A program made the position numbers and the translations under genes. A stretch of 60,574 bases of DNA, counting the filler, from Hausera hauseri (lineage: Eukaryota): assembly GCA_046269625.1 (NCBI GenBank). It is 11 parts of 11 records of this genome, joined end to end, with 100 filler letters (N's around TTAATTAATTAA, not from the genome) between each part and the next. Parts side by side here need not be neighbours in the genome. Positions count along the whole stretch, not along the records: positions 43,724 to 49,051 come from JBJURY010278507.1; 10 more parts are not named here. One strand, written 5' to 3'. Below the pieces are notes generated by a model. It was given only the letters and a program-made list of their open reading frames with translations. It ran no database searches and had not been told where the DNA came from. Positions 1 through 49,051 of this stretch are shown here, piece after piece (the stretch's first letter is position 1; each line of letters begins with the position of its first letter).

Positions 1-280
1 TGCTCATCTTTACCATATTTATTACATCTTTGTGATGTATGGAAAAGTTCCCAAACGACCTCCATTAGTTTCTGCTGGATGCCCACTGATACAGATATTA
101 ATAAGACCCACACAGTTTTTGCATAGTATCCATTCTTTACAATATATTGCATTGTGTTCAAACTAACCAAAAGTTTGCAAAACTGTGTTATTGCTTATAT
201 AGTTTACTGACTATATCTCACTTCATATAATTTCTCAAGTCAGTCATTTTCTATCTACTATATTATAAAAGTAATTCATA

Positions 281-740
281 CCTTCCCTCCACATATGCCG
301 TTATTGGTAGCGTAGCTGCTCAAGAAGTCATGAAAGCAGCATCCAGTAAATTCACTCCCATTCAACAATGGCTTTATTTTGATGCTTTTGAATGTCTCCA
401 CAGCATGAATGCTAAAGTTTTACAGAACACCGAAGCGGATTGTAGTTCAAATAGCCGATACTGCGGTCAGGCTTCCGTTTTCGGAAATAAATTTCAAGAG
501 AAATTGTCAAATCTCAATTACTTTGTTGTCGGTGCCAGTGCAATTGGCTGTGAACATTTGAAAAATGATTCCATGATGGGAATCGGTAGTCGTACCAAAG
601 GAAAAATTTTCGTGACTGACATTGACAGCATTGAAAAGTCGAATTTGAATAGACAGTTTTTATTCCGCCCTCAGGACATCCAGAAAATGAAATCAGAAGT
701 CGCCGCTAAAACTGTTGAAACTATGAATCCAGAGATCAAT
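281..740 (+). pseudogene. UBA1: Intronless internal fragment of ubiquitin-activating enzyme E1 (UBA1-like)
   Basis: [34 protein letters not shown]...[11 protein letters not shown]...[16 protein letters not shown]...[32 protein letters not shown]...MNP matches UBA1. GAGAIG is changed to GASAIG. Similarity stops abruptly after MNPEIN. Confidence 0.9.
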
Positions 741-805
741 CCTTTTTGGGATTTTCTGGGCGAAAATTATAAAAATTATTCTGGTATAATTACCGCGAAA
801 ATGGG

Positions 806-864
806 TGTAGTGCCTGAAGGGTGGTTGCACTGGAGGGGTTAGTAGATCGGTGAGGAGATTTTCC
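806..864 (+). repeat. Conserved 5' cap of a Gypsy LTR-like segment (copy 1)
   Basis: TGTAGTGCCTGAAGGGTGGTTGCACTGGAGGGGTTAGTAGATCGGT matches the reverse complement of 57443-57488 at 40/46 positions. It starts with TG and lies upstream of gag. Confidence 0.7.
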
Positions 865-9821: not shown

Positions 9822-11166
9822 GGCGAAACCTGTAATCGCAAATCAACTGTCGGAATGGTCCGAATTAGTAACGCAATTAAGCAAATTGGTAGAAGATCTC
9901 AAAACAAAATTTCCCCAAAGCGAGCCAACGGTAAAGAAACAAATAGAAGAAAGTGCGCACAACCTAGGCACGATGTGAATAGAGATAGACATCCGTACTA
10001 AATTCGAAGCGCTACGACGACTAAAATTTATGGAAAAGGAACGAGAAGCATTGATCATGGAGAAAATCTACAGACTGATCGAAGAGACAAACTTTACGGA
10101 AAAACGGAACATGATTTACAATGTAAACTCAAAGTTAAAGATTGTTCAACTCGAAGGAGTACAATACTTAACAGGAAAACCAATCGACGAAATTTCTGCA
10201 CAAAGCATTGAAATCCTGGACATTTGTCCAGAGCATCGAGATAAGTTAATGGTGGCAATAAAGTTTTTACACAAACCTCAAAAATGGATGGCCGGGTCAG
10301 ACCAGAATTTCCATACCAATTTGATAGAAATAGGAAACTACCCACATTCTAGTTTTCAGTAACATAAATTCGTAAAGAAAGTGTCGGATGCAATGGACCC
10401 TGATTCAAAAGTTATAAATGAGGTGTATGAGTTAGCCTATATATTGGTGAAAATGGCAGAAATAAGTGATGAGCAAATAAGGCAATTGATGTCCAAGATA
10501 CAGAAAATAAAAGAAACATGTATTAAGACGAAACAAAGAGCGACAATGTTGGATGAAATAACAAAGAAACTTGAAGTCTATCGAAACAAATATGCTTTTA
10601 CCAAATCAGAGATTAAGAATAAACGCGAATTTGTACAAAGATGTCAAAAGGATGTAATTCTTGAATTGACAGATTATCACCAGAAAGGGCTAGTTTGTCC
10701 GAACGTATTGGGCGAGTTATTGAAAATGATTCAGTATGCATGTGGAAACGGAGTAGGTTTCCGAACTACGCAAATGAAAGAAATACAACTTAGATTAAAG
10801 GAAATTCGGGAAAATATTCAAAGAGCCAATACGGCTTTAGCAGACAACTGACTTCCGTATGCCGGAAACGAACCCGAATGGGATGCAAACTTCGACGAAA
10901 TACTTGCCGGAAAACATATGACTCCAGTACAGCCAAACGAAATAGAAACAGGTTCGCAGGACAGGAGATTCAATGTGTAGATAGTACTGGATTTAGCGCT
11001 AAATGAAAAGGATTTTATTGAATTATTTAACATAAATATTACTGAAAACAAATTAAAACAACTTATTTCAACTTTAACTAAATTGTCCAGTGAGAACACA
11101 ATTTATATCACGGTGCCGAAACTTTTGATAAGGAAATATGTTAAAATTTTAAGGAATAGGCCTGAG

Positions 11167-11391
11167 GTGACGATAAAGGTAATGGTGTTATCCGAATGGA
11201 TAAACGAAAAAGAATGCGAGTTGATTACATATTCCTACGTAAAGAACGTAAGAAAATGGCTAGTAAACAACGGTGGAACGAACGAGTTAAATTACATATT
11301 TTAATTTAGAGGTAGAAGATTCAATGATCTAGAACAACTAATAGACGTAGGGATTATTCCTGACGAAACAAATCGGATAGTGGTCGTGATA
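11167..11391 (+). other. Ubiquitin-like (beta-grasp) domain within family B polyprotein
   Basis: VTIKVMV...ELITYSYVKNVRKWLVNNGG...FRGRRFNDLEQLIDVGIIPDETNRIVVVI aligns by eye with ubiquitin MQIFVKT...[20 protein letters not shown]...[27 protein letters not shown]. Confidence 0.65.
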
Positions 11392-12110
11392 ACTAACGAA
11401 CAAACAAAAGAAGAAGCCACGCGTAAAGCCAAAACAGAACAATGCGTAGGACAAATTATGGGAGTTCAAGACGCTGCAATGTATTTTGAGTATTTACAAA
11501 CAGACGAGGATAAGGAACAATACGACATAAATTTAGTACCAATGAGTAAAATATTTACTAAGGGTCCAAGACCGAAACGCCCAGTAGGTAGTCCTAGAAT
11601 AGTGCGAGAAGAAGTAGATTACAATGGAGAGTTAATTAGAGAATTGAAACAGATGTCGATCCTATCTCTTAGCACAGATAATGAAGAATTAAGCGAGTTA
11701 ATAAAAAATTTAATACGAATTGTAAATTATTCAAGCCTTCGAGGTGATGTATTAGATGATAAAGAAAAGACAATATTCAATGCAGCTAAGATGATGCGAA
11801 GTTCGCGTTTCAAACCATCGAAAAGTAACTTAACCGATGAATCGGTAATCGATAAGATTATGGTAGAAACACCAATGAGGAGTTGAGAAAAGTGTTATTA
11901 TATTTAGCAATCAAGATAAATCCTAATCGAGAGAACGAAATTAATAAGGCTATAAGTTTAGCACGGAAAGCAGCAAGAAGAATGACTTGCAAAGTAAATT
12001 GGACAAGACTGTTTTATAAGGAAGAAAACAAACGAAACAACAACAAACTCGACGACATGTTACGTAACCTGACGACGTCAGCCTTTGGAGGTCGAAAGAA
12101 TGAATCAAAC

Positions 12111-13500
12111 TGGCTGATTAGCTTGCTCACCTTAATCATGCTAATAAAGCACATAGGCGCCGTAACCGTATATGATTGCAATAAGTTTAAATTAAGACAG
12201 AGATATTCTTTAATGGACCTAGAAGTATGCGAGGACGCCAGACCGCACAAATTGGAAACAAGAGAAAAAAGTTACTTCATGCATCAACAGCAAGAATTAG
12301 TATCATTAGACGAAATGGAGTGTATGATGAGACGATCACGTAGCATTTTTCACTGTGGACTAGTACACGGACATTCCTCCATAATCAAGCCAACTACTCC
12401 TCTTATTCCGATGAATGTAGAGCGTCAACATTGCAAACAAGCTAAGGAAACTGGAAGAATACAGTGGGACGGAATGCAATTGGAAATGCAACCCGGAAAA
12501 ATAATCAGAGCGTACAAAGTAGTAGCTGGAAGGCTGGATATGCATAGCGGACATTGTAATGGAGCAGAATACGATACCGGAAAAGGATTAGAATCAAACG
12601 TTGTGGATTTCTACGACTCAGAAATGCGATCACAAAATGTAATGTTCCGTAGTGTCACCAAGTTATACACTGAGAATCAGAAATGCCATTTACAAGACAA
12701 ACCTGTGCTTTTAGAAGTTCGGTTATAATATGGGAACCTCCCTCTGGAAGAAGCTGTAACTTTATCAAAATTAAGTAGTTAAAGTATGATGAAACTACCG
12801 GAAAACAATATGTAGACAAATCGGAGACTAATTCAAGAACACGCGAAGATGTGTCAAAACACCCTATACCTACTCTATTAATCTCGGACCCGCACGGACT
12901 AAAATTTATAAAAAAGAGATGATGACTCGTTGTGATGTAGTAATGTTCGCCACAAACTATGAAGCGTTCTTTGTAGCCGAAATGGAGATAAACGCAAAAA
13001 CCTACAAATTGGAAATGCAGGATGTCCGGATTGAAGATTACCTGAAAAATAGAGATGATTATTTCTACTATAAAGGACAAGTCGGAATAACGGAATTACA
13101 TCGCAAAATGATAATGAATGACTGCAAATTTGATACAAAAATCATGAGAACTAAAATGGCTGTTATATATGCAAACCCAGAACTAGCTTCTCCAATAATT
13201 CCCATAATGGAAGGAATTTTCGGTCGAATTACGGGCGAAGTATTACTTTCCTCTGAATGTGAAAAGAGAGAAGTTCCCATCAACGTAGAGGAAAAACGTT
13301 GTATCCAGGAACTTCATGTTATTTATCAGAATACTCCAAGATTAGCTACACCATTGACGAGAGTGCTGTTGGATAACGCAACACAACCAATCATCTTTAA
13401 GGATTGTAAAGCAAGCTTAGGACAGCCAATGTTTAGACGTAGTGAAACAGACTGGGTTAGTTTACCTAATGGAGGTATTACTGCCGCTCCTAAGAAACGA
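12111..13500 (+). pseudogene. Chuvirus-like (class III, gB-type) envelope glycoprotein ectodomain, TM region deleted
   Basis: Signal-like WLISLLTLIMLIKHIGA then VYDC, SLMDLEVC, FHCGLVHGHSSI, GHCNGAEY, KNRDDYFY, GEVLL..CEKREV...C.QEL.V...LATPLTRVL. This cysteine/motif pattern is typical of chuviral and retroelement-captured glycoproteins. Confidence 0.82.
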
Positions 13501-13789
13501 GATGTTGTATTCACCGAGAGAGCCTAGAAATATTGAAACTAGACCGACAGTTTGGGACAACCCAAAATTACGAACATTCAAACATAATGAACTACATACT
13601 AACAATCGACAGCCGCTAATTAGTACTCACAAAATGGAAGAATTGCACGTAGAAAACAACTAATTATATCCAAACAAAGAGTTAAGACAGTTATCGGAAA
13701 ACATAGTATCCGCCCCAGAAGTAAGAATAAACGGACACAAAATATCAGTGACTAAACATTCGAAAGTAGCATCAAACTGTTTTGGAACC

Positions 13790-14413
13790 GTGATCGAAGG
13801 AAAACCTTTCGCCAAAATCATTATTGAAGATTGGGAAGTTTATGCGCTAACTGATACGGGTTCCGAAATGTCTTACATCAAAAATGATTCAATACCTCAA
13901 ACGCTAAGAGGACAATTATATTCGCCGTCTACGATAGATCCAGTCAGTACCGGAGCTTTTGGCCAAACGTCGAAACCAATGTTTAAATGAAACCCAGAAG
14001 TCCAATTAGCTAGATGAACTGTTCGGCATGAATTTGCAATCATAGAACAATTAACTGATGACATCGTTCTAGGATGCGATTTATTGAAAAGGCTACTAAA
14101 TATAGCAGTCGACTTACAAACAGGAAAACTAAATGAGATTAGACCAAAAAGGGCGTGAAGAACGCTAAGGATAGAAAATTCGGGAAGTGTGGATACCAGT
14201 AGACGAGAACATTCCGCCAAGAACGGAGATAATAATTTACGCACAGATTCAGCAAGATAACTATCAGCCAGTATATTTTGAGCCAAGGGCAACGTTAAAT
14301 CCTTATAAAACACTCAGTAATGTACTACCGAGAGTACACTCCGGTCGTGTACCAATCAGAATAGCTAATAACTCGCTGAGTCCTGTCAAGCTCCATGCTT
14401 ATAATACTTTAGG
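13790..14413 (+). pseudogene. Retropepsin protease and post-protease spacer of family B
   Basis: VYALTDTGSEMSYI, DIVLGCDLL, then IPPRTEIII...GRVPIRIAN. Confidence 0.8.
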
Positions 14414-14513: not shown

Positions 14514-14925
14514 CTTACTTCCACGTTCAACGAGTAAGGACAAGTTGGGCGTAATTTCTTATGTTTTTCTTTGGGTCGATCCTTTATCTGCTCATATTGG
14601 AATTCTCCCTGACAATATATGCATATTATTTGTCCCGTTGAAGTTCGGAATAGTCCGGCATTGGCATATAATTGTGCTAATTCCCCTGGAACAGGTGAAT
14701 TTGGGTATTCTAGGAATGATATTTTTCTGTTCTGTGCATTTCTCATGGAGTTGTCCAATACTGTCATTCTGGAGTAACTTGTCAGTCTCTTAATGAATGC
14801 TGTCGGTCCGAGTTGTCTATTCTGATAATGTAGCAGGTACTGTACTGTATTAGGTTGTGCTGGTCTTGTATATTCGTAGTATCTGGGGGCTTGAAATTTG
14901 ATTTCTCTTATTCTCTGCATTTCAG
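14514..14925 (-). CDS. IAP-like protein with BIR domain, truncated at contig end
   Basis: RKISFLEYP...LAQLYANAGLFRT...CIYC...KHKKLRPTCPY fits the BIR consensus R..SF..WP...LA.AGF...C..C...H....P.C.F. Confidence 0.85.
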
Positions 14926-14962
14926 CTAAAATGTAACCCAATCAAATAAGAACACTTTTTAT

Positions 14963-15270
14963 TCACAAATTTTTTATCGTATAATAGGCATGTTTATATT
15001 GAAATAGTTTATTGTTAGCACGACACACTGGGCATGAGGCTCCAATGGAGAACCATTCCCTCAGACACTGTCTACAAAACTGATGCCTGCAAGGGACCAA
15101 CTCCACTGGGTCTACGGAATATTCGTTTAAACAAATTGTACACTGGGCTCCCACAGGAGTAAAATTCCCACATGGGTTGTATATCGTATATACATTTATT
15201 TCATCTGTCTGGCAAAATGCTGGGAACCCGTGACTCAGTATGGTCGATGAGTTCACAATACGGGGTAAAC
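14963..15270 (-). CDS. RING finger (C3HC4) protein cassette
   Basis: CTICLNEY...LVPCRHQFCRQCLREW...CPVCR. No ATG in frame; starts after TTTTCTTAAG. Confidence 0.88.
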
Positions 15271-15325
15271 CTTAAGAAAATAAAATAAACAATTTGTTAC
15301 ACATAATTTTATTGATAATTTAATT

Positions 15326-15786
15326 TTAATCTATGTCCAATATTGTATAGGGTTGTGGGTTTCTCCATGCTTCCGGCCAGCTGCCGTCGTCCTCATCGAT
15401 CACTAGCACTATAGAGGATTGTCTATTCAAGTTCAAGTATGTGATCAGTCCTTCTGTGATATAAAAGTCCACCGTTTCCAGGCAGTAGGGGCATAATTGA
15501 CAACACGCCAAATATTCAAGGATGCATGACTGGCAAAATACATGCCTACACGATAGGGTGGCCAAGTCCTCAGCTACTAGTTTGGAGCACACCCAACAGA
15601 ATGTGCAATTTCTTCTGCAACAGGGGCAATTGTTATGTTCCCCCAGCCAGATGTTGATACAGGAACTGCAGTAGCTATGCTTGCATGGTAGTGTGGTCCT
15701 TTCCTCCATCATTTCTTCAAGGCAGATGGGGCATTTTTCGGGTTCCATTCTGTCTTCATTTCCACTTCCATTTCTGTTTCCGTTTC
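15326..15786 (-). CDS. Tandem double RING finger protein cassette
   Basis: CPICLEEM...LPCKHSYCSSCI..W...CPCCR followed by CWVC...LSCRHVFCQSCI...CPYC. Confidence 0.9.
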
Positions 15787-15990
15787 CTTAAATGGTAATA
15801 GTTTATTTCAAGTATTTTCTATATTCATTTACTAACAATAATAAGTCCTTCTAATAAAACGACTTCTATATGTTAAAATTTATCATACTATAATCATTCA
15901 CAGATCTACGATTCCACCTGTTAGGGCACATATGGGACACAAAACCAAATTTCGCGAGGTACAATAATCAATTTACTTTCATTACATATT

Positions 15991-26477: not shown

Positions 26478-27007
26478 TTAAAATATGGTTGGTGCTGTTC
26501 GCACCTCCTCGGAAGCCGAATTTTGAGTTATCAATTCATCGACCCATTTCACTTGTTTATAGATGGATTGGTAGCATTGCACCAAGGCAGTGCTACAAAG
26601 AGGAAAACCTTTAGTGTCATAAAATTTTCTTGCTAACTCTTTGAAAGTTCCAGTCAGTAATTGGTACTGGCGAATTACTTCTTCATGATATAAAATGTCG
26701 CGGATTCCGGCCAACCGCCGATTGGGCATTTGAAATGGTTTACTACCATTTCAATAACCTCGGCTCCGATTACCACTTTGTCCGTTAGTATTTCTGCCAT
26801 TTTTCGGTAGAAATTCGGTGTATCCATCTGGTTATTGATATTGGCTTCAGTTGGACCCGTTATATGCGTATCAAAGTTATTGATACGCTGTCTTGGGGTG
26901 ATTATTTCATACAAGAGTGTGTCCCCGTGCAGAGTCATGATTGATGCTTCGATGGGTTGGAGCTGGTTCCATTGGTCGTAGGCCAAGTTTACGACTGCTA
27001 TGACCAT
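26478..27007 (-). pseudogene. DEDDh 3'-5' exonuclease-like domain (REX4/ISG20 type), catalytic residues absent
   Basis: EASIMTLHGDTLLYEIITPRQRINNFDTHITG...AEILTDKVVIG...IRD...FKELA parallels REX4 RVSIVN.HG.VLYD.YVKP...VTDYRT.VSG...AELLKGRILVG...IRDT...LKKLA. One frameshift near 26730. Confidence 0.75.
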
Positions 27008-27124
27008 ATCGCTATCTTTTATTTTATCAATTCTTCGAAGGGGGATACTTTTATATTTAATGTAGTCTGGTTCCGGAAGATTGAAGCATTTTCCTTCAGG
27101 GAGGCTCGGACAGAATTTTTCGTT

Positions 27125-27574
27125 CTTTATCACTTCCATTGATAATATTATTCGGTTGGTGCCAGAACGAATTTTAAATGTATTTGTATTAAGAAACGTA
27201 TGATCGAAAGCGAGACCGTGTTCTGCGCCCAAATTGATCAAATCTCCTTTTACAGCTGTTTTCTTATTGGAAGTTTTGACTTGCAGTTGACCAGTAACAC
27301 AATAAAGATTCATGGAATAAAAACGTTCTGGTAAGATCAATATGTCCGACAGATAGAAGGAAATAGCTTTCGAGATTTGCAGAAGGGCGAGCGAACGATT
27401 CACCATACCGTAGCCTTTCCAGTTATTTGGAATTTGTTGTGCCTGTGGATAATTTAGACTAGTCATGGTATTATTGTGGACTATATGATATTGATTGGAT
27501 TGATTTGCTTTTATAACGTGGTTCTTAGCATTGTTATACCAATGCTTTGATCGATTAATTGTCTGGATTTGATA
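27125..27574 (-). other. AlkB/2OG-Fe(II) dioxygenase-like (DSBH) domain, probably inactive
   Basis: VNRSLAL...ISFYLSD...FYSMNL...KGDLINL...FDHTF...RIILSME parallels AlkB FNSCLVN...IGWHxD...IASLSL...GDLLVM...WxHxV...RINLTFR. Confidence 0.4.
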
Positions 27575-27775
27575 GAACGTTGACGAAGATACTGCAAGAA
27601 ACAAAGTCAATGTGATTCTATACACGATATTTAAATTCAACACAACGGTTATCATACACATCACTAAGGTAATCGTTGTGGTTATTGGGGAATGAATTCG
27701 ACTATAAGTAACTAGATGTTGTTTGGCTATCTTTTTTCTTAGGGTTGCTTTGATAGCAATCCCTGTGACTAATTG

Positions 27776-29161
27776 TCAGCTGGGATTGTCTGTATCTAAC
27801 GGATTTGTTAGATCACGCATGTTAATTCTAACCCAGCTTCTACTCTGTTTACATTGCAAGTGTAGGATTTTGATTACTATTATCGATATGACTATCAACG
27901 TTAAAGGAACTAAGGATCCGATTAATATTACCTCCAAACGAGAATATTTATACGAGGCTCGAGAGGGTTTGCTAGTTACTTGATTACTAACTGGATTTAT
28001 CTTATAAATTAGTTCCTTTTTATGACTCTTCTTTGTAAATGCCGACATTACCTTGGTAGAAGTTATCTTATCATTATCATCTATTAACTACAGGATAACC
28101 GTATACCTTGTATTAGGGTCTAAGGCTGCGCATGGTACTATCAAATCATCCGGCGTTAGTACTCCCTTCGCTACTACTGTATCTTGTTTCTTACATGTGA
28201 ATCTAATTTTCAATAAATCTAAATCTGGCCTAACGGATATAATTAGAGCAGTAGGGGCTGCTATAAAAGTTACGTTATCCCATATAGAGCGCTTTTAACG
28301 ATAATAAAACGCGTAAGGTCTAATCAAAATAGTCATTTCTTTTTTATCGGTCAAGAAGTTCATAGCTGGTGTCGTAATCTTTTCCTGTATGTCATCGTAT
28401 TCTTTTTGATTGTTATATCGTATAAACATCGTTGGTCCGGTTCGCTCTAATGGGTATCCAAATTTATTATTTCTTCTCCGAAATAGGAGATATTGAATAT
28501 GATATATTTTCCCCCGTGTAACCATACAACAGACTCGTTGTTGTGTACCATTTAGTCTGCAGACTCTAACCTTCGGCCTCACTGTTTCTACTAGTTTTAT
28601 TGTTATTCGTCGACTATCTTACAGTTATATCATTGTTATTATCTAAATTCAACTTCTTCCGCTTTTAAGTCCCATTGATCTTGATATTATCTGATTAAGT
28701 ATTACTTCGTTTAATTGAGTCTCGTTCATCTGTTGTCTTGTAGTGATTACTATTAATCTATAAAATTTTGTTTTCTGGCTTTTTTAGTGATCTCCCTGTC
28801 TTTTTATGAGTGTAACGTATATGTAATGGACACCTGAACCTTGTAAAATAGACAGTGTCTGATTGGTGTCTGAGTGGAATAATCAGTTATATTGTCGCTC
28901 ATTTGGGTCTCTTGTATTATCATACCACGGTATTATTTGTATCCCCATTATATATGTTGGGGGCAGTTGTTCTGGCATATTCCAGTTCATCACTTTTTGA
29001 CCTTTTTCTGAGTATGTTATTCTATACCGTAGACGTTTCATTAACAAGTCTTCTTTTATGACTATTGTATGTAGTATTTTTGCTCTTTCGATCTCTTGAT
29101 TCGTCAGCCGTCCGATCGCTCTGGGGAATGATAAGATGATGCTTAATAACAAACACTGCAT
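27776..29161 (-). pseudogene. Env-position membrane protein: signal peptide, FN3-like, furin-like site, FN3-like, TM
   Basis: MQCLLLSIILSFPRAIG; VMNWNMP..IMGIQI...HYIYVTL; YYR*KR|SIW; CAALDPNTRYTVIL...SAFT; TM VILIGSLVPLTLIVISIIVIKIL. Interrupted by point stops. Confidence 0.6.
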
Positions 29162-32100
29162 TAACCAATGAGATCCATTGGTTGGATCTACCCTGTTTGA
29201 TTTTTCATTACTACTTACTACTTCTTTTTAGCCTTTTCTTAACTCACTTCCCTTGGCCGCTGGTTTACATCTATTAAGGCGAACCTTCACAGATGTATTC
29301 TTCTTCTTCAAACAAATATTAGGTAGATCCACTCTCTCTACTTCTTAAGGCCCTTTATATGGCCTATCCAATTTTGATGTTTTACCCTTTTTAGTGGGCC
29401 GTGAATATAACATTACCTGGTCACCTATTTTAATTTTTGGCTGTTTGGCCTTTTGTCATAATACTTTTTCATTTTAATTTATAGTCTTTCTGGTTATCAC
29501 CAATTGTTTTATATGATAGATGGAGGCGTTCCTACATTAACTGCTTATAATCTCCTACCTCCATTAGACGCGAAACAGGTTTCAGTCGGTAATCTTTCAT
29601 CCCGTAAATACATCAAGTAAAAGGGTGTCTCTTTAGTAGCCTCGTGGACCAATGTCCGATTTACAAAAATACATGCATTGATATATTCATCCCAATTGTC
29701 TTGTCTAGTGTTTACTACCATTTGTTATTTCCCTTTTAGATCTCTAATATATCTGTCGATCATTCAGTTATTTTCTGGGTGTCCCGGTGTGGATCGTAGT
29801 TTTAATATCTTCAAAATGTCATATATTGACTGAATTACGGTTCCTGTTAAATTTGACGCTTGATCGGTTAAAAGAATTCTTGGAGCTCCATAACTAAATA
29901 CTATATTTTCCACAAATTACTCAGCGATTATATCTGCCTTCATATCAGCCATTAGTAGGGCCACAACCCATCTAGTAAAGTAATCAGTAAAGACTAGGAT
30001 ATATCGGTTTCCATTTCGGGTTAATGTTAGTGGCCCCGTTATGTCCATTGCAGTAAATTCAAATGGTGCTGGGGTTGTCCCATATCTTTAATGGTGCTTT
30101 GAATTTTGATCCCATGTTTTTTCGGGTGGTACATAGTTTACAACTGTCGCACCAGTCCTGTACATCTTTCGATATCGATGGCCAAAAGAATTTTCTTTTC
30201 AACTTTTTAAGCGTTTTATTTACTGACTGGTGTCTACAAAGGAGTCCATCATGGTATTGAGTTAACAGAACTGTTCTGTTTTTCTTGGGAATTACTAAAG
30301 TAGGTCCATTTTGATGAACAAAGTATAAAAGTCCTTCTTTTTTCTCATAAGCTTCACTGAATCGGGCCAAATGGCGAGTTAATCCTTTATCAGCTGGTAT
30401 GGTTTTGTCCTTTATGCATCTTCTAATGGCCCTTATTTTACTTCTTTTGTTTTGATTTGCCTTAATTTTTTCTACTGATCCATCCATGCTCCATAAGGCT
30501 GCGACTACTGCTTTTTCCCTTTCTGATTTACTGGGTATTCTGGATAGATAATATGCGTTTGCGTTACGTGATCCCGGTTTATATTGGAAATTCAATGTAT
30601 AGGGCTGTAACTTTAAAGCCCATCGTAGTAGTCTGCTGTTAGGATTTTCATGTTGTTTTAACCATCGGAGCGGTTTATGACCTGTATAAACTATGAGAGG
30701 TTTATTTTCACTAATATAGGGCGAAAACACCTCCAAGGCAAATATGACTGCGAATAGTTCTTTTTTAATTACCGCATATTTCCTCTAATGTTTATTGAGT
30801 TTTCGTGAAGCGTAGGTTACTGGGTATTCCTTCCCATCTTCACCCTTTTGTAAAAACACTGCTACTATCCCATAGTCGCTTGCGTCCGTTGCCAAAATGA
30901 ATAGTTTGGTCATATCCGGATAGAATAAATAGGAGCAGTTAACAGCCTATCCTTTAGATATTCGAATGCTTTTTGGCATTTGTTTGTCCAAATGACTTTG
31001 TCTAGGTCTTTGCGTAATAGTTCATACAAAGGTTTTACAATTTTGTTAAAATCCTTTATAAATCTTCGGTAATAGTTTGCCAGATCTAAAAACTGACGTA
31101 ACTATTTGACTGTACCTGGCTTTGGGAAGTCTCTTATTTTTCCCAGAAGCTTGTCTTGAGGTTTTACGCCATGACTATCTACTCTATATCCGAGGAAATC
31201 TACCTCTGCTTGAGCAAACGAGCATTTCTTTGGGTTTATCTTTAGGCCCATTATTTCGCATCTATCAAAGAGATCTTGTAGATCACTTAGATGTTGTTGA
31301 AAATTTGGCGATGCTATTATTACATCATCAATATATACCATGGCATGTGGAGCGTCTAGCAGCAAAAGTTCTGTTCCTCTCTGAAACGTTGGCAGTTTAT
31401 TCTTTAATCCAAATAGCATCCTATTAAATTCCCATAAACCTTCTCCGATTGCAAAGGCTGTCTTTGGTTTATCCTCTTCTTTCATTTCCACTTTCCAGTA
31501 ACCTTTTTGTAAATCTATTGTTGAGAATATTGTTGACCATGTAGTTTACTAATATTTCGTCAATTTTTGATAACGGATATGTATCCGTTTCCGTTATTTC
31601 GTTTAATGCCCAATAGTCTATACAAAATCTCATAGTCCCATCCTTTTCTTGACCATCACTTCTAGAGACGTCCATGGTAAACAAATTGGTCAAATTATCT
31701 CGTTTTCCCTTAGTTCTTTTATTATTTTTTGTGCTTCTTGATTTTTATCATATGCTAGTCGATAAGGTCTTTTCTTTATGGGTTTGTATTGTTTCTCCTT
31801 CAACTTAATGACATGTTGCATTATATTCATTGTACCAAATCATAATTATTTTGTGCAAATCGATTATTATTCTTTTTTAATAGTTCGATCAGTGTCCTCT
31901 TCTCTTCCTTAGTTAAAATCTCGCATTTCTGTAGCTTCTCATGCCAATTGATACTGCTTATTTTATTTCTTTCTCTATCTTCATTTGGTTCCTTCTTTAA
32001 TTTCTTTGTTATTAATTTTTCTATTCTATCTACGTTTGAAATGGTCGAATATATATTTTGTTTTATTATTTCCTCACTGGTCGTTATTTCTCCTAATCTC

Positions 32101-33046
32101 ACATTCTTACGCAGTCGCCTTTCTTTACTTGCCGTATTACAAATCCGCAAATGAATCTTACCATCCCTCACTCTATATACATGGGGGCGATTAGAATCTC
32201 GTACTTCTCCATAACTTGTGCAGATGGTTAAAAGTAAATAACCTTAGGTAATGCTTGACTTTCTATTTCTCCGGGTACTACTACCTCGGATCGCGGTTGG
32301 ATTGTCATATCTTTTATTAATGTGACCATTTCTTTGTCTTCACCGAAAGTCTTCAGTTGAAATGTTTACAAATCTATATAAACATTTCCCAATTGGTTTA
32401 GTATATCACATCCAATTAAAATTCCGTTAGTCAGATTATCGGCTATCCTTATAGTATGTTCTACAATCTGTTCACCGATCCTAATTTTGGCATTTAAGAC
32501 CATCTTGATTTCTTCTTCTGTGCCGAAAGATCCTACATTTATTAAGGTAGTTGTTGGTCATCGTAATTTCCTTTTTAACTCCTTTGGTAATTGGCTCCTT
32601 CCCATTATCGTCGTTGTGGATCCAGTGTCCAGCAAAGCCGTCATTGGGTATTTATTAACCTCTATCTCTATTTCTGGCCTTATAGGTAGTTGTCCATTTT
32701 TATCATCAGTTTTGTATCTAGATTCACGTTTATATGGTGTTACATTTTCGTCAAGATTTCGTTGTATCTGTTGTATTTGATGCACTGGGTATGTTAGGAT
32801 CTCTTGGTTACCCAAAAATCTAAATTTAAAAAAATTGGAAAAACGATAAGAATCCCAAACTGAACTTTTTGAATTTGAAACCTGTGAGAGAAATAACCAT
32901 TTCCCCAATCAACAAAAATCCCAAAAAGTAAAAGTCAAAAACGAGCCTGAAGAGCAAGAATCCAGCTACACAAATTCGAAAACCGCATTAAAAAATAACA
33001 ATCCAAACCGAAACAGTTCAAAAAACAAGTCAAAAAGCCACAGAAC

Positions 33047-37709: not shown

Positions 37710-37809
37710 NNNNNNNNNNNNNNNNNNNNNNNNNNNNNNNNNNNNNNNNNNNNTTAATTAATTAANNNNNNNNNNNNNNNNNNNNNNNNNNNNNNNNNNN
37801 NNNNNNNNN
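37710..37809. other. Artificial contig-join spacer
   Basis: N44-TTAATTAATTAA-N44. Confidence 0.99.
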
Positions 37810-40800
37810 AATACATTATCTGACAAACAAGTTATATCTGGTTCAACAATAGTAGTTAAAGGTCTACCAACGAGAAAATGAGCGGGCGAAAGCGCTTCTA
37901 AATCATTTGCATCATTAGACAAGGGACTAATAGGTCGCGAATTTAAGATACCCTCAACTTCAACTGTAATAGTAAGAAATTCTTCATATGTGAGTTTTAG
38001 ATTACCAATTGCTCTTTTAAGGTGAAATTTAAATGATTTAACTCCAGCTTCCCAGAGTCCACCAAAATGTGGAGCTCTAGGGGGAATAAATTTCCAACGA
38101 ATTGTCTCTGAAGTGAGGTAATTTGCCAGTACTTCATCAGGGTATTTTACTAAATTGTGCAGATGTTTTAATTCACGGCTGGCGCCTATAAAATTGCTTC
38201 CATTATCCGAAAATATAGTGGTACATTTTCCACGTCTAGATATAAATCTTTTCAAAGAAGCAATAAATGAATCTGTAGTTAAGTCCGAAACTAATTCCAA
38301 ATGGATAGAACGTGTAGCTAAGCATATGAAAATTGCGACATAGATTTTATTCAATGTACCCTTACGTTGATTCCTATATTTAACGAAGAACGGACCACAA
38401 AAATCAATGCCAACATTAGTAAATGGAGGACTAGGCGTTACTCGTTCAGTGGGTAAGTTACCCATAATCTGATCTGAAACCTTTGGTTTATTCCTGAAGC
38501 ATACTATACATTCGTGAACTATTTTTCTGGCAATGTTTCTACCTCCCAAAGGCCAGAATTCCTGCCTTACCAAGTAAAGGAGGGTTTGTGCACCAACATG
38601 CAAATACTTACAGTGAAAATATCTCATTATAATCACTGTAAATCTATGACCCCTAGGAAGTAGGATTGGGAATTTTCGATCATATGATAGACTTGAATTC
38701 AGTAATCTACCTCCAACGCGAATAATTTCTAGTTTATCTAAGAAGGGATGCAAGGAACTCACATGAATATTTTTTACCTTGTTTTCGTTTTTAAGGGCTT
38801 TCAATTCATTAGAAAAAGCCGTTACCTGAATCAATTTTATTAACCTAATTTTTGAATCCTGCAACTCCTCATTTGTTAGAGGTCCTACTTTTCTATTGGC
38901 CTTAGCAGTTCTTGAGTTGTGAAGAAACCTGCAAAGAAAACTAAATACACGAATTAATTTTGAGTAACTATTACTTAATTCTAAAAAGTACTCAACAAAG
39001 AAAGTATTGCTTGTAGAAGATAAACTAATTTCTGATTGTCCTTTAAGTTCGGATAAATAAAGATCATCTGAAATGACCGCAGTATCAGGTATAATACTGG
39101 AATCTTCAGCCGAGTCCGGTGTACACTCAGGTCCATACCACCATAAGTCCGCTGCTTCAAGTTCTTGAGGGTTTAAGCCTCTAGATATGATATCTGCAGG
39201 GTTAAGATGCGACGGAATATGCTTCCACTGGTAATTTTCGGTTAAAGTCTGTATTTTCGACACTCTATTGCCGATGAAGGTTTTCAGTCTATGTGGAGGG
39301 GTGTTTATCCAGGCCAATGCGATTGTTGAGTCTGTATAACAAATGATTTCGCAAATATTCATTTGAAGAGAAAGACGAATTCTTTCCACCAGTTGTGACA
39401 GAAGGAGACACGCTGACAACTCCAAACGAGGAATCGAAATGACTTTGACTGGGGCTACTCTAGACTTACTCGCTATAAGCTTATTGACAGCTGTGTCATT
39501 TCCCAATTTACATTGCATGTAAACAGCAGCACCATATGCTGATTCAGAACTATCTGCATACCCTAACATACTAATTCTTTCAAAAGACTCTGTCAGGATA
39601 TATCATGGGATTTTTATATTTTCTATGAGTTTCAAAGAAGTCACAAATTTTGACCATTCCTGTTCGATTGACTGTGGTAGAGTATCTTCCCAGTTTAACT
39701 TTTGAAGCCATAATTTTTGCAAGAAAATCTTAGCCTTTGTAATAACTGGACCAAGGAGGCCCAATGGATCATAAAGTCGAGCAATAACCGACAAAACACC
39801 TCTCTTAGTGTAGAAAGGCTCAACCCTTAAGTCTACTTTAAAAAAGAAATAATCCTCTTTAGGATGCCAATTCATACCCAAAGCCTTGACTGTAGAATGC
39901 TTATCGACAAAAAAAGGTTCTTCGTCATGTGGATCTATACTACTATTTAAAAGTTCAGATGAATTCGAAGTCCATTTGTGAAGTTGCATTCCAGCCTTTT
40001 GAAAAAGTAATGTCAATTGTGTTTGAAGTTCCTGTGCTGATTCCAGATCAGCAGCGCCACTGACAACATCATCCATATAGACATCACGCAAAACTATTTT
40101 TGAAGCTATGGAAAAGGTATGTGCTTCGTCCATAGCAAGTTGCTTGAGAGTTCTTATAGCTAAAAATGGCGCGCAGGCAGTCCCATATGTTACTGTATTC
40201 AAACGATATATAATGGGATTTTCATTTATGTCTGTCGTCCATACGATTCGAAGGAAGTCTCTTTGAGATGGCTCAATTAAAATTTGACGAAACATTTGTT
40301 TAATGTCCGCAGTAAATGCATATTTATGTGTTCGAAATCTAGTCATTATATCAAAGATATCTTCAGTAACCTCGCCCTTCAACAAAAAATCGTTAAGAGA
40401 TTGACCAGAAGGTGCAGGTGATGACGCATTGAAGACCACACGAAGTTTAGTTGTTGGTTTATCTGGTCGATATACGCCATGGTGTGGAAGATAATAGCAA
40501 TTATCAGGCCAGTGTTTATTGTCTATCCTTTCCATATGACCCAAATTTTCATATTCCAACATGAAATTTCTATAAAGTTCTTGCATTGGTGGGTTTCTTG
40601 ACAATCTTCGATTTAACTGCCTCAACCGTAATTCAGCAATGCATTTGGAATCACCCAAGAAATCAACTTCCTCTCTCATTGGCATCGTGACAATGTAACG
40701 ACCAGTTTCATCACGCCTATGAGTACGCTTAAAATGCTCTTCACAATATTTAGTCTCCTCACTCATAATTGTCTGACTCAAATCAACTTCTTCTAATTTC

Positions 40801-42725
40801 CAAAATTTTTCTAAACAACTATCAATATCAGAAATCCGAGAAAGACCACAATAACCATATGTTTGCCGTGTCGTTTCAACTAGACCACTGGCTATATACC
40901 CAAATACAGTATTTTGAAATATAAGAGACTTCAAAGAAGTGCGAACATGATTACCCTTAACAATGTCAAAAGATATATCTGCTCCGAATAAAATATCAAC
41001 CTTTGATGGTGCCATAAATTTAGGATCCGCCAAGGTCGAATAATGTGGAATTTCTATGCCATCGATGGTCAAATAATTTGCAGGAACCATATCCGTAATC
41101 TTAGCAACCACCAGAAAATTCAATGATGTCGAAAATGAACCATTGAAATTTGAAATTCGTGTGAAAACACTATATTTCACATTAACTATGTTTTCACTTA
41201 ATCCAGAAATTGCGACGTTTACCTTTTGATTACTTAAACCAAGTTCAGTAGCAAATTTTGACGTAATCAAATTACTTTGGCTTCCGTTATCCAGAAGCAC
41301 TCTTCCCCGTATATAGCTATTCTTCTGGGGTGACCATACCCAAATAAGAGCCGTTGAAAGCAAAACAGTTTTATTCGATGAATTCTGCATAGCAGAAAAA
41401 TTATGAACAGTTTGATTACTTTTATTCAATTGATTTATTTCAGTGGAAGCATCAGTAGACATTGGCAGTTTAACTGCAGAATTTCCTTCAGAAGAGGGTG
41501 CTGAAATTAATTCTTTAGTAGAAGCATTTGTTTCACTCGAGGACTTATTCTGATTTCTGCATAAAAGATAATTATGCTTTTCCGAACATATTCGACAACA
41601 ATAACTTGAGTTACATGTAGCTAATTTATGAGAATCAGACAAGCAATTTAAACAGAGGTTATGCTTTTTTACAAACTTAAATCTCTCAACAGGGGTCAAA
41701 TTTAAGAACAAGGTACATCTATATATGACATGTGGCTTTTTACACATAACACATAAATTACTGTTCTTATTAACCACAAAGCTTTTTCTTTTATTTGAAC
41801 TAACTTTTGGTTTCAGTAAAGGTAACTGAACCCCTTGTAAATTCTCTAACACTTGAGAACGCTTTTCTAGGAATTCAATAAATTTGTCCCATTTAGGTAA
41901 CTCAGTCGACGTTAAACTCATCTCAAACAGCTTACGTGTATCTTTATCTAATTTTTGCACAATAATATTTATTAAAATTTGTTGTGCTAGTTCAGTAAGT
42001 TCGAGCTTCATCAATTTTAAACCTCTCAAATTTTTATTTATTACATCGACAAGATTTCTTAAATGTGTAGACGATTCTACGTTAAGCCTTTCTGTATTCA
42101 AAATATTTAAGATGTGCGTATTTACAATTAAACGCTTATTTTCAAATCTTTCCATTAATACATTCATCAATGAATGAAAAGTATCTTCCGGCGTTTCAAT
42201 TTGTTTGACATCCCCTTTTAACGCCGAACGTAAATAAAATAATCTCTGTATATCGTTTAAAGCAGAGTTATTAGTAATTAGACTATCAAATTGCGATTTA
42301 AAATTGTTCCAATTATCAACTTGTCCATCAAATTCAGGTAGCTTAATATCAGGAAGTTTTACAGAACTAACATTAACTTTATTGTCAATACCAGACTGTA
42401 AACATTCACCAAGTTCAAATAAAGTTTTTTGCAAGCCTACCTTCGCTTCCTCCAAGTCTTCTTCCATAGCATCGAACTGCGAATCCATTTCCGGAAGTTG
42501 CTCGTCTTCTAAAAGTTCGTAATATTTCTGTTTCAACGCCTTTAATTCAATAGTAATTTCAGCAACACCTTCTATTTTACTTCTTATTTTGTACCTATTA
42601 GCCGACGCAACCTTTTCCTTCAAAAATGTTTGCAACTTCGTAATTCTAGCCCTATAGTTGCCTTTATTACGATTTAAAGTTTTTAGCCTTTCTTCAATGG
42701 CGGCTTTCTGTTCAGGAGTCGACAT
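37810..42725 (-). CDS. BEL/Pao Gag-Pol polyprotein with one premature TGA at 39603-39605; continues at 43546-43246 across the circular join
   Basis: The 1108-aa and 603-aa ORFs are in the same frame; KIP*YIL replaces the usual IPR (CGA>TGA). Confidence 0.9.
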
Positions 42726-42798
42726 TTTGCAGCAAAACGAATTGGTCTCAAACGAAGAAGTAAACATATAATTTTCAAATTTTAACCTTTCACAGTTT

Positions 42799-42818
42799 AC
42801 TCCGGCTACCAAGGACCA
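42799..42818 (-). promoter_or_regulatory. Primer binding site (tRNA-Tyr-like)
   Basis: TGGTCCTTGGTAGCCGGAGT, 6 nt after the LTR end; resembles TGGTCCTTCGAGCCGGA. Confidence 0.7.
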
Positions 42819-42824
42819 AAAATA

Positions 42825-43235
42825 TGTTGTGTTCTTTTTGTGGACTGTAAATTTCGAGTTAAAAATAACAACTAAAAAATCCAGACAATATTTTATTTTC
42901 AATTTAAGATGCCGACTACATCCTTTCAACTTAATAGCGAACTAACCACACGAGCAACAACTCACGATCGAGTCGCGCCCTTTTGGGGTTACTATTTTTG
43001 GCAGAGCGTCAAGCCTGACTTGGCGCCCGTTACCGAGGAAACGGATGCGCCAACATCCCGCCCGACGCTGCAGTGTCACACGACACACAAGAATTTAAGT
43101 TGACAAACAAATGCAACAATTGAATACTAACAAAATTTTAAAAATGTTAAAATTAAATGCAATACAAAAGAATTAAAATATAAATGACATAAGTGATTTA
43201 AAAATTTCAATATTTACAATAAAATGACATAAACA
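42825..43235 (-). repeat. BEL/Pao LTR (~411 bp)
   Basis: TGTT...AACA between the pol stop (43246) and the PBS. The 5' boundary is less certain because the PPT is weak. Confidence 0.7.
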
Positions 43236-43723: not shown

Positions 43724-44585
43724 CTGGGTTCCATTTAAACATTGGTTTTGACATTTGGCCAAAAGCTCCTGTACTACCCGGAACTTTCGTGGACAGCGGA
43801 TATACCTGTCCTCTTAACGTCTGAGGTTTTGAATAATTTTTGATGTACGACATCTCGGAACCCGTATCGATTAACGCATAAACTTCCCAATCTTCAATAA
43901 CGATTTTGGCAAAAGGTATTCCTTCGATCACTGTTCCGAAACAGTTTGATGATACTTTCGAACGTTTAGTCGCTGATATTTTGTGTCCGTTTATTCTTAC
44001 TTCAGGGGCGGATACTATGTTTTCCGATATCTGTCTTAATTATTCGTTTGGATATATTTCGTTGTTTTCTACGTGCATTTCTTCCATTTCATGAGTGCTA
44101 TTTAGCGGCTCCCCATTGTTAGTATGTAGTTTAGTATGTTGGAAGGTTTTTAATCTTGGGTTGTCCCAAACCGTCGATCTACTTTCGATATTCTTAGGTT
44201 CTCTCGGTGAATGCAATATTTTGGGATCAACTGCGGATTGCCGCTAACACATTTTCCGTAAAATCCCATATAGTTTTGTTCCATCATAAGGATTTTCTAC
44301 ATTAATTGTTCTTTTATAGATTTCCGTTTTATATGAGCTCATGGATCGTTTGTCACAATCTTCGTAAAATAGAGCGGTAGGGAGTAACATGGGTAATGGC
44401 GCTTTAACTACAGAGTACACCTTGTGTCTATTTATCCCTGAGAATGCTTCTCCTCTTTTAGGCTCGTCATCATCTGAATTATTTCTTCGTATAATAGGTT
44501 TTGTAGACTTCCGCTTCCGTAGGAATAACGGTCTCCCTCTTCGTTTACAATTATAGTAATCGACATGACGTTCTACGTCCGCTTT

Positions 44586-46325
44586 CTATCTACTCTTTTC
44601 GTATGCTTTTAAAAATTTTCCAAAAGGCGTTATAATTGCAGTCAGAATTTTATATGAAAATCCGGTTAGTGTAAATATTTCGTATTCGTTTATCACGGCT
44701 TGGATAACTGCCTTAATCATTTGTATCAAAAAATATATCTCTAAAAATCCTGATGCGGCTTGTCCAAAATTTAAAAATCTTCCCCAGATTTTGTAGAGTA
44801 TTTCGGTTGTCACTCTCTGATAGTGGATTACGCCTAGTAATGATTCTCATTTAGCCTGATATCGTGTGTCGTCTACTACAGATGACATCGCTCGATTTAG
44901 CTCATGCTTTCGTTGTCGTAGGAAGGCGAGAAATTGTCTGAAGGCCTCAATTTCCGTCGGTATGTATATACCTTTTGACGAGGTGTCTTGAAATTTACCG
45001 TCTGTGATACCCTTCGCGATATTCGTCCCTGCTAGCTTGTTACGAACATCAGTGATACCTCCATTAGGTAAACTAACCCAGTCTGTTTCGTTATGTCTAA
45101 ACATTGGCTCTCCTAAGCTTGCTTTACAATCCTTAAGAATGGTCGGTTGTGTCGCGTTATCCAACAACACTCTCGTCAATGGCGTAGCTAATCTCGGAGT
45201 ATTCTGATAAATAACAGGAAGTTCTTGGATGCAACGTTTTTCTTCTACGTTGATGGGAACTTCTCTCTTTTCACATTAATAGGTTAGTAATACTTCGCCA
45301 ATTTGCAGTCATTTATTATCATTTTATGATATAACTCCGTTATTCTGACTTGTCTTTATAGTAAAAATAATCATCCCCATTTTTCAGGTAGTCCTCAATC
45401 CAAACATCTTGCGTTTCCAATTTGTAGGTCCTCGCATTTATCTCCGTTTCGGCTACAAAGAATGCTTCATAGTTCGTGGCGAACATTACTACATCGCAAC
45501 GAGTCATCATTTCTGTTTTATAAATTTTAATCCACGCGGGTCTGAGATTAATATAGTCGGTGTAGGGTGTTCCGATACATCTTCGCATGTTCTCGTCTTA
45601 GTCTCCGATTTGTCTACATATCGTTTTGCGGTAGTTTCATTAAATTTTAACTCTTTAATTTTGATAAAGTTACAGCTTCTTTCAGAGGGAGATTACCATA
45701 TTATGACCGAACTTCTAAAATCACAGGTCCCGTCTTGTAAATGGCATTTCTGATTCTCTGTGTATAACTATGTGACACTATGGAACATTACCTTTTGTGA
45801 TCGCATTTCTGATTCGTAGAAATCCACAACTACCACGTTTGGTTCTAATCCCTTTCTGTTATCGTATTCTGCTCCATTACAATGTCCGGTATGATTATTC
45901 AGCCTTCCAGCTACTACTTTGTATGCTCTGATTATCTTTCCTGGTTCATTTCTAATTGCATACTGTCCCATTGTACCCTTCCATTCTCTTTGGCTTGTTT
46001 GCCATGTTGACGTTCTAAATTCATTGGAATTATCGGAGTAGTTGGCTTAATTATGGAGGAATGTCCGTGCATTAGGCCACAGTGGAAAATGCTACGGGAT
46101 CGCCTCAACATGCATTCCATTCCGTATAACGATATCAGTTTTTGTTGTTGATACAGGAAGTAACTTTTCCCTCTTGTTTCTAGTTTGTGCGGTCTGGCAT
46201 CCTCGCATACTTCTAGATCAATTAAGGAATATCTCTGTCCTAATTTAAACTTATCGCAATCATAGACGGCTACCGCACTTATATGCTTTATTAACATCAG
46301 TAAGGTAAGCAATCTAATTAGCCAA
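44586..46325 (-). pseudogene. Chuvirus-like envelope glycoprotein with C-terminal membrane segments
   Basis: AVYDC...FHCGLMHGHSSI...KGIY...WGRFLNFGQAASGFLEIYFLIQMIKAVIQAVIN..EIFTLTGFSYKILTAII. Confidence 0.85.
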
Positions 46326-47043
46326 TTTGATTCATTTTTCCGACCTCCAACGTCTGACGTCGTCAGACTACGTAACATATCGTCGAGTTTATTGTTGTTT
46401 CGTTTGTCTTCTTCCTTGTCAAGTAGTCTCGTCCAATTTACTTCGCAAGGCATTCTTCTTGCTGCTCTTCGTGCTAAGCTTATAGCCCGATTGATTTCAT
46501 TCTATCGATTAGGATTTATTTTGATAGCTATGTATAGCAATACTTTTCTCAATTCTTCATTCGTGTTTTCTGCCATGATCTTTTCAATTACCGATTCATC
46601 AGTTAAATTGCTTTTCGATAGTTTAAAACGCGAACTTCGCATCATTTGGGTGCATCGAAATTTATCTTTTCTTTATCATTTAACATATCTCCTCGAAAAC
46701 TAGAATAATTCATAATTCGTATTAAATTTTTCCTTAACCTGCTTAATTCCTCATTCTCGGTGTTAAGGGTTGGAATCGACATCTGCCTCAATTCTCTAAT
46801 TGACTCTCCATTGTAATCCACCTCTTCTCGCACTTTTCTAGGTATGCTTACTGGGCGTTTCGGTCTTGGACCCTTAGTGGTTGCTTTGCTTAGTGGTACT
46901 AAATTTATGTCGTATTGTTCTTTATCTTCGTCCATTTGCAAATACTCAAAATGTAGTGCAGCGTCTCGGACTCCCATGATCTATCCTACGCATTGTTCTG
47001 TTTTGGCTCTACGTGTAGCTTCTTCTTTTGTCTCTTCCTTAGC

Positions 47044-47268
47044 TATTACTACCACTATCCGATATGTTTCGTCAGGAATAATCCCGACATCTATTAATTG
47101 TTCCAAGTCATCTAGTATTCTACCTCTACAATAAAATCTGTAGTTTAACTCGTTCGTTCCACCATTGTTTACCGGCCATTCTCTTACGTCCTTTACGTAG
47201 GAATGTGAAGTCAACTCGCACTCTTTTTCATCCATCCATTCGGATGACACCATTACTTTTATTGTCAC
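47044..47268 (-). other. Ubiquitin-like domain (family B copy 2)
   Basis: VTIKVMVSSEWMDEKECELTSHSYVKDVREW..NNGGTNELNYRFYCRGRILDDLEQLIDVGIIPDETYRIVVVI. Confidence 0.68.
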
Positions 47269-49051
47269 TTCGGGGCTAGCCCTCAAGATTTTAGCGTACT
47301 TCCTTATCAAAAGTTTCGGCACCGTACTATAAATCGTGTTTTCGCTAGACAATTTAGTTAAAGTTGGGATGCGTTGTCGTAATTTATTCTCGGTAATATT
47401 TTCATTAATTAATTCAATCAAATCCTTTTCAGTTAGCGCTGAATCTAGTAGCATCTCTACATTGAACCTCCTGTCCTGCGGACATGTTTCTGTTTCGTTT
47501 AGTTGTACTGGAGTCGTAGATTTTCCGGTAAGTATTTCGTCGAAATATGCATCCCATTCGGGTTCGTTTCAGGCATCCGGAAGTCGATAGTCCACTAAAG
47601 CTGTATTGGCTCTTTGAATGTTTTCCCGAATTTCCTTTAATCTAGGTTGTATTTCTTTCATTTGCGTAGTTAGGTAACCTACTCCATTTCCACGGGCATA
47701 CAGAATCATTTTCAGTAATTTGCCCAATTCGTTCGGGCCAACCAGCCCTTTCTCGTGATAATCTGTCAATTCGGGAATCATATCTTTTTGCCATCTTTGT
47801 ACAAATTCTCCGATTCGGTAAAAGCATATTTATTTCGATAGACTCCAAGCTCTTTTGTTATATCATCTAACCTTTTCTCTGTTTGTTTTGTCTTGATACA
47901 TGTTTCTTCTACTTCCTGTATCTTGAGCATCAACCGCATCATCTGCTCATCACTGATTTCTGCCATTTCCACTAATAAATAGGCTAGCTCATACAGCTTA
48001 TTTATAACCTTTTAATCAGGGTCCATTGCATACGACAATTTCTTTACAAACTTGTATTCCTGAAAGCTGTAATGTGGGTCTTTTGGATTTCTATCAACTT
48101 TGTATGTAAATTCTGGTCTGATCCGACCATCCATTCTTCAGGTTTGTGTAAAAACCTTATTGCGTCCATTAACGTATCTCGGCATCCTGGACAAATGTCC
48201 AAGATTTCAATGTCTAGTACAGAAATTTCGTCGATTGGTTTCCCGGTTAAATATTGAATCCCTTCTAGCCGGATATTTCTTAACTTTGAATATGCATCGG
48301 AAATCATATTCCGTTTTTCCTTAAAGTTTGTCTCTTCGATCAATTTGTATATTTCCTCCATCGTCGACGCTTCCCGTTCCTTTTTCATAAATTTTAGTCG
48401 TCGTAGCACTTCAAATTGATTACGGATGTCTATTTCTATCCGCAACGTAGCTAAATCGTGTGCACTTTACTCTAATTGCTTCTTCACCGTTGGCTCGCTT
48501 TGAGGAAATTCTGTTTTACGATCTTCTATCAATTTGGTTAGTAGCGTTACTAACTCGGACTATTCCGACAATTGATTTGCGATTACAGGTTTCGCCATTA
48601 TGGCTTTATTTAGGATCTTATAGGCATCTTCTAACTCATCGTCTGGTACTTTTAGGAATTTCATAACTCGACCGACATAACTAAACTCGTCCCTATACTC
48701 GTCCAATTCTACGATACAAGCCTTTATTGCATATTAAGTATCCTCGTTGTTTGGGAACATAATTAAATTTCTCAAACTATAGATCTGTGCTCCTATTTCA
48801 TTTTCGATTTTAATACGACTCTCTAAATTCGTATATCGTCTATGTACGGCAAACGTGAGTTTAATCATCTCCATTAAGGGAAGAATATCTACTAGGTCTA
48901 TACCCAATATTTCTAAGTCGATATTACTTCGATGGTTAACCGGTTTTTCCATAAGTCGTTTAGTCATTGCGTATCGAATTTCGTCCATCATACGTTCTAA
49001 ATTACGGACTACTCTCTTCAATTTTGGGTTTTCCTCCAAAGTCGATAATAG

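Follow-up and report, generated by a model that had tools for sequence, protein, structure and literature searches.

Nematodes, bryozoans and flatworms are known to carry Ty3/gypsy elements in which a gB-type env precedes pol (Chary and Hayashi, eLife 2026, PMC13524379; this and the other articles are cited for their excerpted text). Chuvirus-type glycoproteins also lie inside LTR retroelements of the BEL/Pao group, as in Anakin (PMC7642597, PMC10084718). Host domains have entered retrotransposons as well, a methyl-CpG-binding domain having been captured by the arthropod Copia retrotransposon CopiaMBD (PMC6673714), and pestivirus polyproteins carry ubiquitin and ubiquitin-like insertions (PMC13517609). 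For Drosophila errantiviruses, the mode of budding and the use of ESCRT are stated as open (PMC3383448). Against this background of env-before-pol retroelements and host-domain capture, the locus described here, with a putative ubiquitin-like segment in an element of this kind, is likely a new combination.

The window is a 60,574-nucleotide stretch of Hausera hauseri DNA, composed of short contigs with 100-base spacers and rich in decayed gypsy, BEL/Pao and Polinton-like pieces, a make-up that points to an animal, probably an invertebrate, as host. Two of its contigs hold copies of one element that are 85% identical over 3.3 kb, with the following features.

9822..14413, plus strand: the element's copy 1, which takes up the whole contig, with the upstream frame, the domain, the envelope and a retropepsin at 13799-14095.
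11173..11388, plus strand: putative ubiquitin-like segment of copy 1, with an in-frame stop at 11302-11304.
43724-49051, minus strand: contig of copy 2, with the segment, the envelope and the start of the retropepsin.
47263..49051, minus strand: upstream part of the segment's frame, charged, running for about 596 codons as far as the contig end, with several stops and frameshifts.
47047..47262, minus strand: putative ubiquitin-like segment of copy 2, 72 codons, open.
46322..47046, minus strand: region from the domain to the envelope signal, about 245-249 codons.
46265..46321, minus strand: hydrophobic stretch, likely the internal signal sequence of the envelope, mapped from copy 1.
44577..46321, minus strand: chuvirus/herpes-gB-type fusion glycoprotein (PF24664, E 8e-11 and 4e-26), broken by stops and frameshifts.
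about 44691-44747, minus strand: hydrophobic membrane anchor, in copy 2 only.
43724..43922, minus strand: beginning of the retropepsin, truncated where the contig ends, in frame with the C-terminal half of the envelope.

The first-pass annotation had placed a 75-residue ubiquitin-like segment in both copies, embedded in a polyprotein. A 75-residue stop-free frame containing the letters it quoted is present at 47044-47268 on the minus strand, and the wider counterpart in copy 1 spans 11167-11391 on the plus strand, within the 3.3-kb block. Frame, letters and location were therefore correct, but the stop at 11302-11304 in copy 1 had gone unmentioned. The embedding was supported. None of the 11 comparable stops (5 in copy 1, 6 in copy 2) is common to both copies, which also differ in where their frameshifts lie, suggesting that the upstream region through the envelope most likely formed one continuous frame originally.

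Both copies share the gene order upstream region, segment, signal-like stretch, gB-type envelope, protease and contig end. The signal-like stretch of copy 1 lies at 12114-12170, with a hydropathy peak of 2.07. PF24664 scored above its cut-off in five pieces, as did the copy 1 retropepsin downstream of the envelope (PF00077, E 1.8e-5), and about 250 codons separate the envelope anchor from the retropepsin. In copy 2, envelope and protease lie in one frame with 4 stops. Three of these 4 fall within 812 nt of the envelope region (45031-44220) that are absent from copy 1, and env may thus have ended at a true stop.

The carrier is a multi-copy retroelement, and both copies are decayed. It likely belongs to the GAG-ENV-POL errantivirus type of Ty3/gypsy, an assignment held at this strength because no RT, integrase, LTR or Gag can be seen in the contigs, both of which end within or just past the protease. 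No long repeats were found in the two contigs. Like the GAG-ENV-POL errantiviruses (PMC13524379), the element is multi-copy and has a gB/chuvirus-type envelope ahead of the protease; the ectodomains of those elements lie between two transmembrane stretches, and here signal-like and anchor-like hydrophobic stretches are present. Unlike them, it has at least 845 codons without assignment, including the ubiquitin-like segment, before the envelope. A chuvirus-type glycoprotein inside an LTR retroelement is also what Anakin BEL/Pao carries (PMC7642597, PMC10084718), but the protease here matches that of the window's other gypsy element (E 2e-15), and the window's other Gag pieces, including the Gag part of its BEL element, gave no match to the element. 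Troyka membership was rejected, since no Troyka encodes an envelope according to the excerpted text of PMC12440569.

The upstream part of the frame (47263..49051) holds the Gag position, yet it had no family match and no Gag was identified in it. Gag profiles and the ESM Atlas gave no match to the sequenced part ahead of env, the sequenced part contains no CCHC knuckle, and the 5' end of the element lies beyond the contigs. The region between domain and envelope signal (46322..47046) had neither a family match nor a usable Atlas match. Within it, the stretch just before the envelope signal (46420-46650, minus strand; 11790-12010, plus strand, in copy 1) gained no profile or Atlas support; only by eye does it resemble the C-terminal domain of gypsy Gag.

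The segment holds up as a genuine coding sequence that is conserved. Between copy 1 and copy 2 its dN/dS was 0.22 (74 codons, 95% CI 0.09-0.51), compared with 0.92 and 1.24 in the two other frames, and the segment is therefore under purifying selection. The upstream frame gave 0.28 (659 codons), and, with overlapping CIs, purifying selection does not act more strongly on the segment than on the flanking parts. In a public sequencing run (X1; share of words 0.16), 14,497 contigs were spread over all 30 bins of copy 2, a contig depth that does not equal copy number; no RNA data set was listed as sharing the sequence. On the segment itself lay 706 contigs, mostly of 80-95% likeness, and no indel occurred among the matches listed. 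Third codon positions accounted for 26 of the 37 variable places (P 5e-6; 40 of 51 rows listed). Among 15 joints listed, two single contigs skip the segment wholly or partly. The element family is clearly large, and the segment is retained across it.

The resemblance to ubiquitin was assessed against 121 ubiquitin loci from viral contigs, which yielded 97 distinct units, 93 of them used. The near-gapless alignment claimed in the first-pass annotation held in that the segment (47262-47047) aligned without a gap over 72 residues, but the similarity is weak, with 14 of 72 residues (19%) identical to one ubiquitin, and structure prediction did not confirm a beta-grasp. Positions always hydrophobic in ubiquitin were hydrophobic at 19 of 23 sites in copy 2 and 18 of 23 in copy 1. 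With an ungapped ubiquitin profile, the copies scored 24.1 and 22.5 and ranked first and second of 20,867 windows, the third scoring 1.8, and neighbouring registers on the segment gave -41 to -87. Only 1 in 100,000 shuffles attained the segment's score, and the two halves each contributed (P 0.007 and 0.0001). Column-shuffled profiles did equally well in 61 of 2000 trials when the entire window was scanned, in 71 of 5000 when the scan was limited to recognised coding frames, and in 22 of 5000 when it was limited to the element. After search correction, the match had a P of 0.004-0.03. A BLOSUM62 shuffle test of the segment against ubiquitin gave a local P of 0.03 and a global P of 0.002, and hhalign aligned 49 columns without a gap (P 0.018, probability 2.6%).

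Database searches gave a mixed picture. A two-copy profile matched IQUB, a PDB entry with a ubiquitin-like domain in its name, weakly (E 0.6), and single-segment queries of NCBIfam and PDB sequences found no match. Local hmmsearch with a ubiquitin profile returned nothing significant across the window, and Pfam at E up to 10 assigned the segment to no ubiquitin family (PF00240, PF11976, PF14560). The same three families (ubiquitin or Rad60-SUMO-like) were the family-bearing sets among the ESM Atlas matches listed, at 0.91-0.93, on a scale where shuffled proteins score 0.9 in 4-10 of 100 cases. For this query (recognition 2991), 24 of the 30 matches were unnamed clusters, the best at 0.94, and one set shared 186 features with the segment and was 97% PF00240.

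A predicted structure other than a beta-grasp had been named in advance as the result that would count against a ubiquitin-like domain. The two AlphaFold models obtained lacked the beta-grasp helix, and both were of low confidence (pLDDT 53.8 and pTM 0.41 from the single sequence; pLDDT 45.2 and pTM 0.34 from the two-copy alignment). A ubiquitin alignment was kept out of the folding input, as the result would be circular. A VIA fold search with the first model (pLDDT 54) found its best matches in methyl-CpG-binding domains, with a top Z of 3.1. Among the 14 matches listed, 9 were MBD-type or methyl-CpG-reader chains and none had a ubiquitin fold, at Z values of 3.1 or less that the tool calls meaningless.

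These values bear on a chance resemblance, in which the segment would belong to an orphan retroelement protein as a common alpha/beta piece whose fold is a different one, such as a sheet like that of methyl-CpG-binding domains. The 19% identity, the corrected P of up to 0.03, the missing Pfam match, the low-confidence models that are not beta-grasp and the weak MBD-type fold matches speak for such a reading, and the capture of an MBD by a retrotransposon has precedent (PMC6673714). However, the fold matches are too low to carry meaning, the segment is acidic (14 D/E vs 8 K/R), neither Pfam nor the Atlas matches listed contain an MBD, and ubiquitin is matched in the exact length of the gapless alignment and in the strands at either end. 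We regard chance as fairly unlikely. The first-pass term "ubiquitin-like domain" is backed by the gapless register and the language-model neighbours but was confirmed by neither Pfam, HMMER nor structure prediction. On the former two grounds, we consider it quite probable that the segment is a ubiquitin-like (beta-grasp) domain.

The C-terminus is informative about what such a domain could do. A charged stretch without di-glycine directly follows the segment in copies 1 and 2, and no C-terminal GG, LRGG or xGG is present in either segment. Pestivirus ubiquitin inserts act as cleavage signals, and recognition by deubiquitinases (DUBs) needs the GG tail. Processing by host deubiquitinases in the pestivirus manner has its model in the ubiquitin and ubiquitin-like insertions of those polyproteins (PMC13517609), and the likeness extends to a ubiquitin-fold unit, here putative, within a viral-type polyprotein. 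Pestivirus inserts, in contrast, are recent and direct copies of host mRNA, whereas the segment is very divergent at 19% identity, has no GG and is kept across the family. Such a processing signal is extremely improbable here, in agreement with the doubt already voiced in the first-pass annotation.

Our preferred reading, to which we give a probability of roughly 0.55, is that this conserved 72-residue segment likely has a ubiquitin fold, was likely captured from a host long ago, and would act, on the cytosolic portion of the precursor, as a docking module that cannot be cleaved. A host gene would have been the ancient source, and the segment would sit within one long retroelement protein. Because it lies ahead of the envelope's internal signal sequence, the domain would, by standard topology, stay cytosolic on the precursor. 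The missing di-glycine implies that the segment is neither conjugated nor cut like ubiquitin; with both of these ruled out, the role that remains would be that of an integral, non-covalent docking module. UBL domains of the RAD23/DDI1 type are integral, non-conjugated interaction modules of cellular proteins. About 1,000 codons and an envelope lie between domain and retropepsin, so the architecture is not that of DDI1. The coronavirus nsp3 Ubl beside PLpro (PMC4584293) is likewise a non-conjugated beta-grasp interaction module in a larger protein, as is proposed here, but the carriers of nsp3 Ubl and RAD23/DDI1-type UBL domains differ from the present retroelement. CopiaMBD (PMC6673714) is comparable as a small, putatively host-derived domain retained in a retrotransposon protein, and differs in domain, superfamily and proposed role.

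Candidate partners of the docking module, at a guess, would be proteins of the element itself or host proteins that handle ubiquitin, such as ESCRT ubiquitin receptors and adaptors of the proteasome or of p97. In the Leu8-Ile44-Val70 patch of ubiquitin, Glu replaces Leu8 in both copies, copy 2 has a residue other than Ile at the Ile44 position, and Val70 is kept. These changes make a specialised partner likelier than plain ubiquitin mimicry. They also bear on a special case of the docking module, a true ubiquitin mimic that would recruit ESCRT ubiquitin receptors and replace a late domain for budding, close to the ESCRT or budding module suggested by the first-pass annotation. For this special case speak the absence of PTAP/PSAP and PPxY from the ten sequenced frames of both copies, the enveloped nature of the element, the probably cytosolic position of the domain, and the ability of ubiquitin fused to foamy-virus or EIAV Gag to drive budding (PMC2958808). 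Budding by Gag-fused ubiquitin depends on Leu8 and Ile44, however (PMC2958808), and of the patch Val70 alone is kept here. The acidity of the segment also counts against a mimic, the missing 5' part of the element could carry late domains, and a YPxnL motif, a possible ALIX site, ahead of the copy 1 protease offers an ordinary alternative. We therefore judge the ESCRT mimic, weakened by the changed Leu8 and Ile44 positions, to be distinctly unlikely. The YPxnL motif itself lies at 13667-13684 on the plus strand, where retroviral late domains are often found; copy 2 is broken there.

An enveloped env-before-pol Ty3/gypsy element might encode, in the Gag position, a ubiquitin-fold domain that takes the place of ubiquitylation and brings in host machinery for membrane scission or proteostasis. 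This broader proposal is speculative and we hold it to be unlikely; if true, the stand-in would be a natural version of engineered Gag-ubiquitin fusions. Should the retained ubiquitin-fold domain prove true, it would represent a novel type of accessory domain, offer a tangible way into the question of how enveloped retroelements of invertebrates bud, and join the few host domains known to have been captured by retrotransposons. Without confirmation of the fold, the element would be a decayed example of a gene order already described, set apart by the unusual length of the orphan region before env.

Relatives of the element were found in none of the collections searched beyond sequencing run X1. 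A word-index search with the 195-aa open frame, the 687-aa upstream frame and the 75-aa segment (E up to 10) returned no homologue, nor did phmmer among 1.84 billion representatives or searches of viral and metagenome contigs, in collections that contain little eukaryotic repeat sequence. Phage records gave 4 chance matches only (E 3-7). In the literature covered, no ubiquitin-like domain was found reported in an LTR retroelement; the nematode env-before-pol elements reportedly treated by Sacco et al. in 2022 fell outside it. The word "ubiquitin" is absent from the excerpted text and 7 supplements of PMC13524379, which do not annotate accessory domains of Gag, the element sequences lying outside this scope, and likewise from the excerpted text of PMC7642597, PMC6338049, PMC5408684 and PMC12440569.

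Several other elements were observed in the window. A second decayed Ty3/gypsy element at 26481-32908 (minus strand) encodes protease, RT, RNase H as well as integrase. It has extra 3' frames at 28886-29227, 27779-28618 (with a hydrophobic stretch) and 26678-27775 (366 aa), which matched no Pfam family and are possibly an unrecognised envelope or cargo. At 14516-15787 (minus strand), one contig combines a BIR domain with a double RING finger in an IAP-like manner and could be viral or transposon cargo. A Polinton-like stretch at 7042-9469 (minus strand) holds decayed pieces of a protein-primed family B DNA polymerase (PF03175, E 1e-11) and an endonuclease VII-like finger. On a different contig from the segment, positions 231-839 (plus strand) contain part of a ubiquitin-activating E1-like gene (ThiF, E 4e-29) that is free of interruptions and is possibly a processed pseudogene. 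Finally, a nearly intact BEL/Pao polyprotein occupies 37761-42941 (minus strand), where two long frames, of 1112 and 614 codons, are separated by a single in-frame stop.
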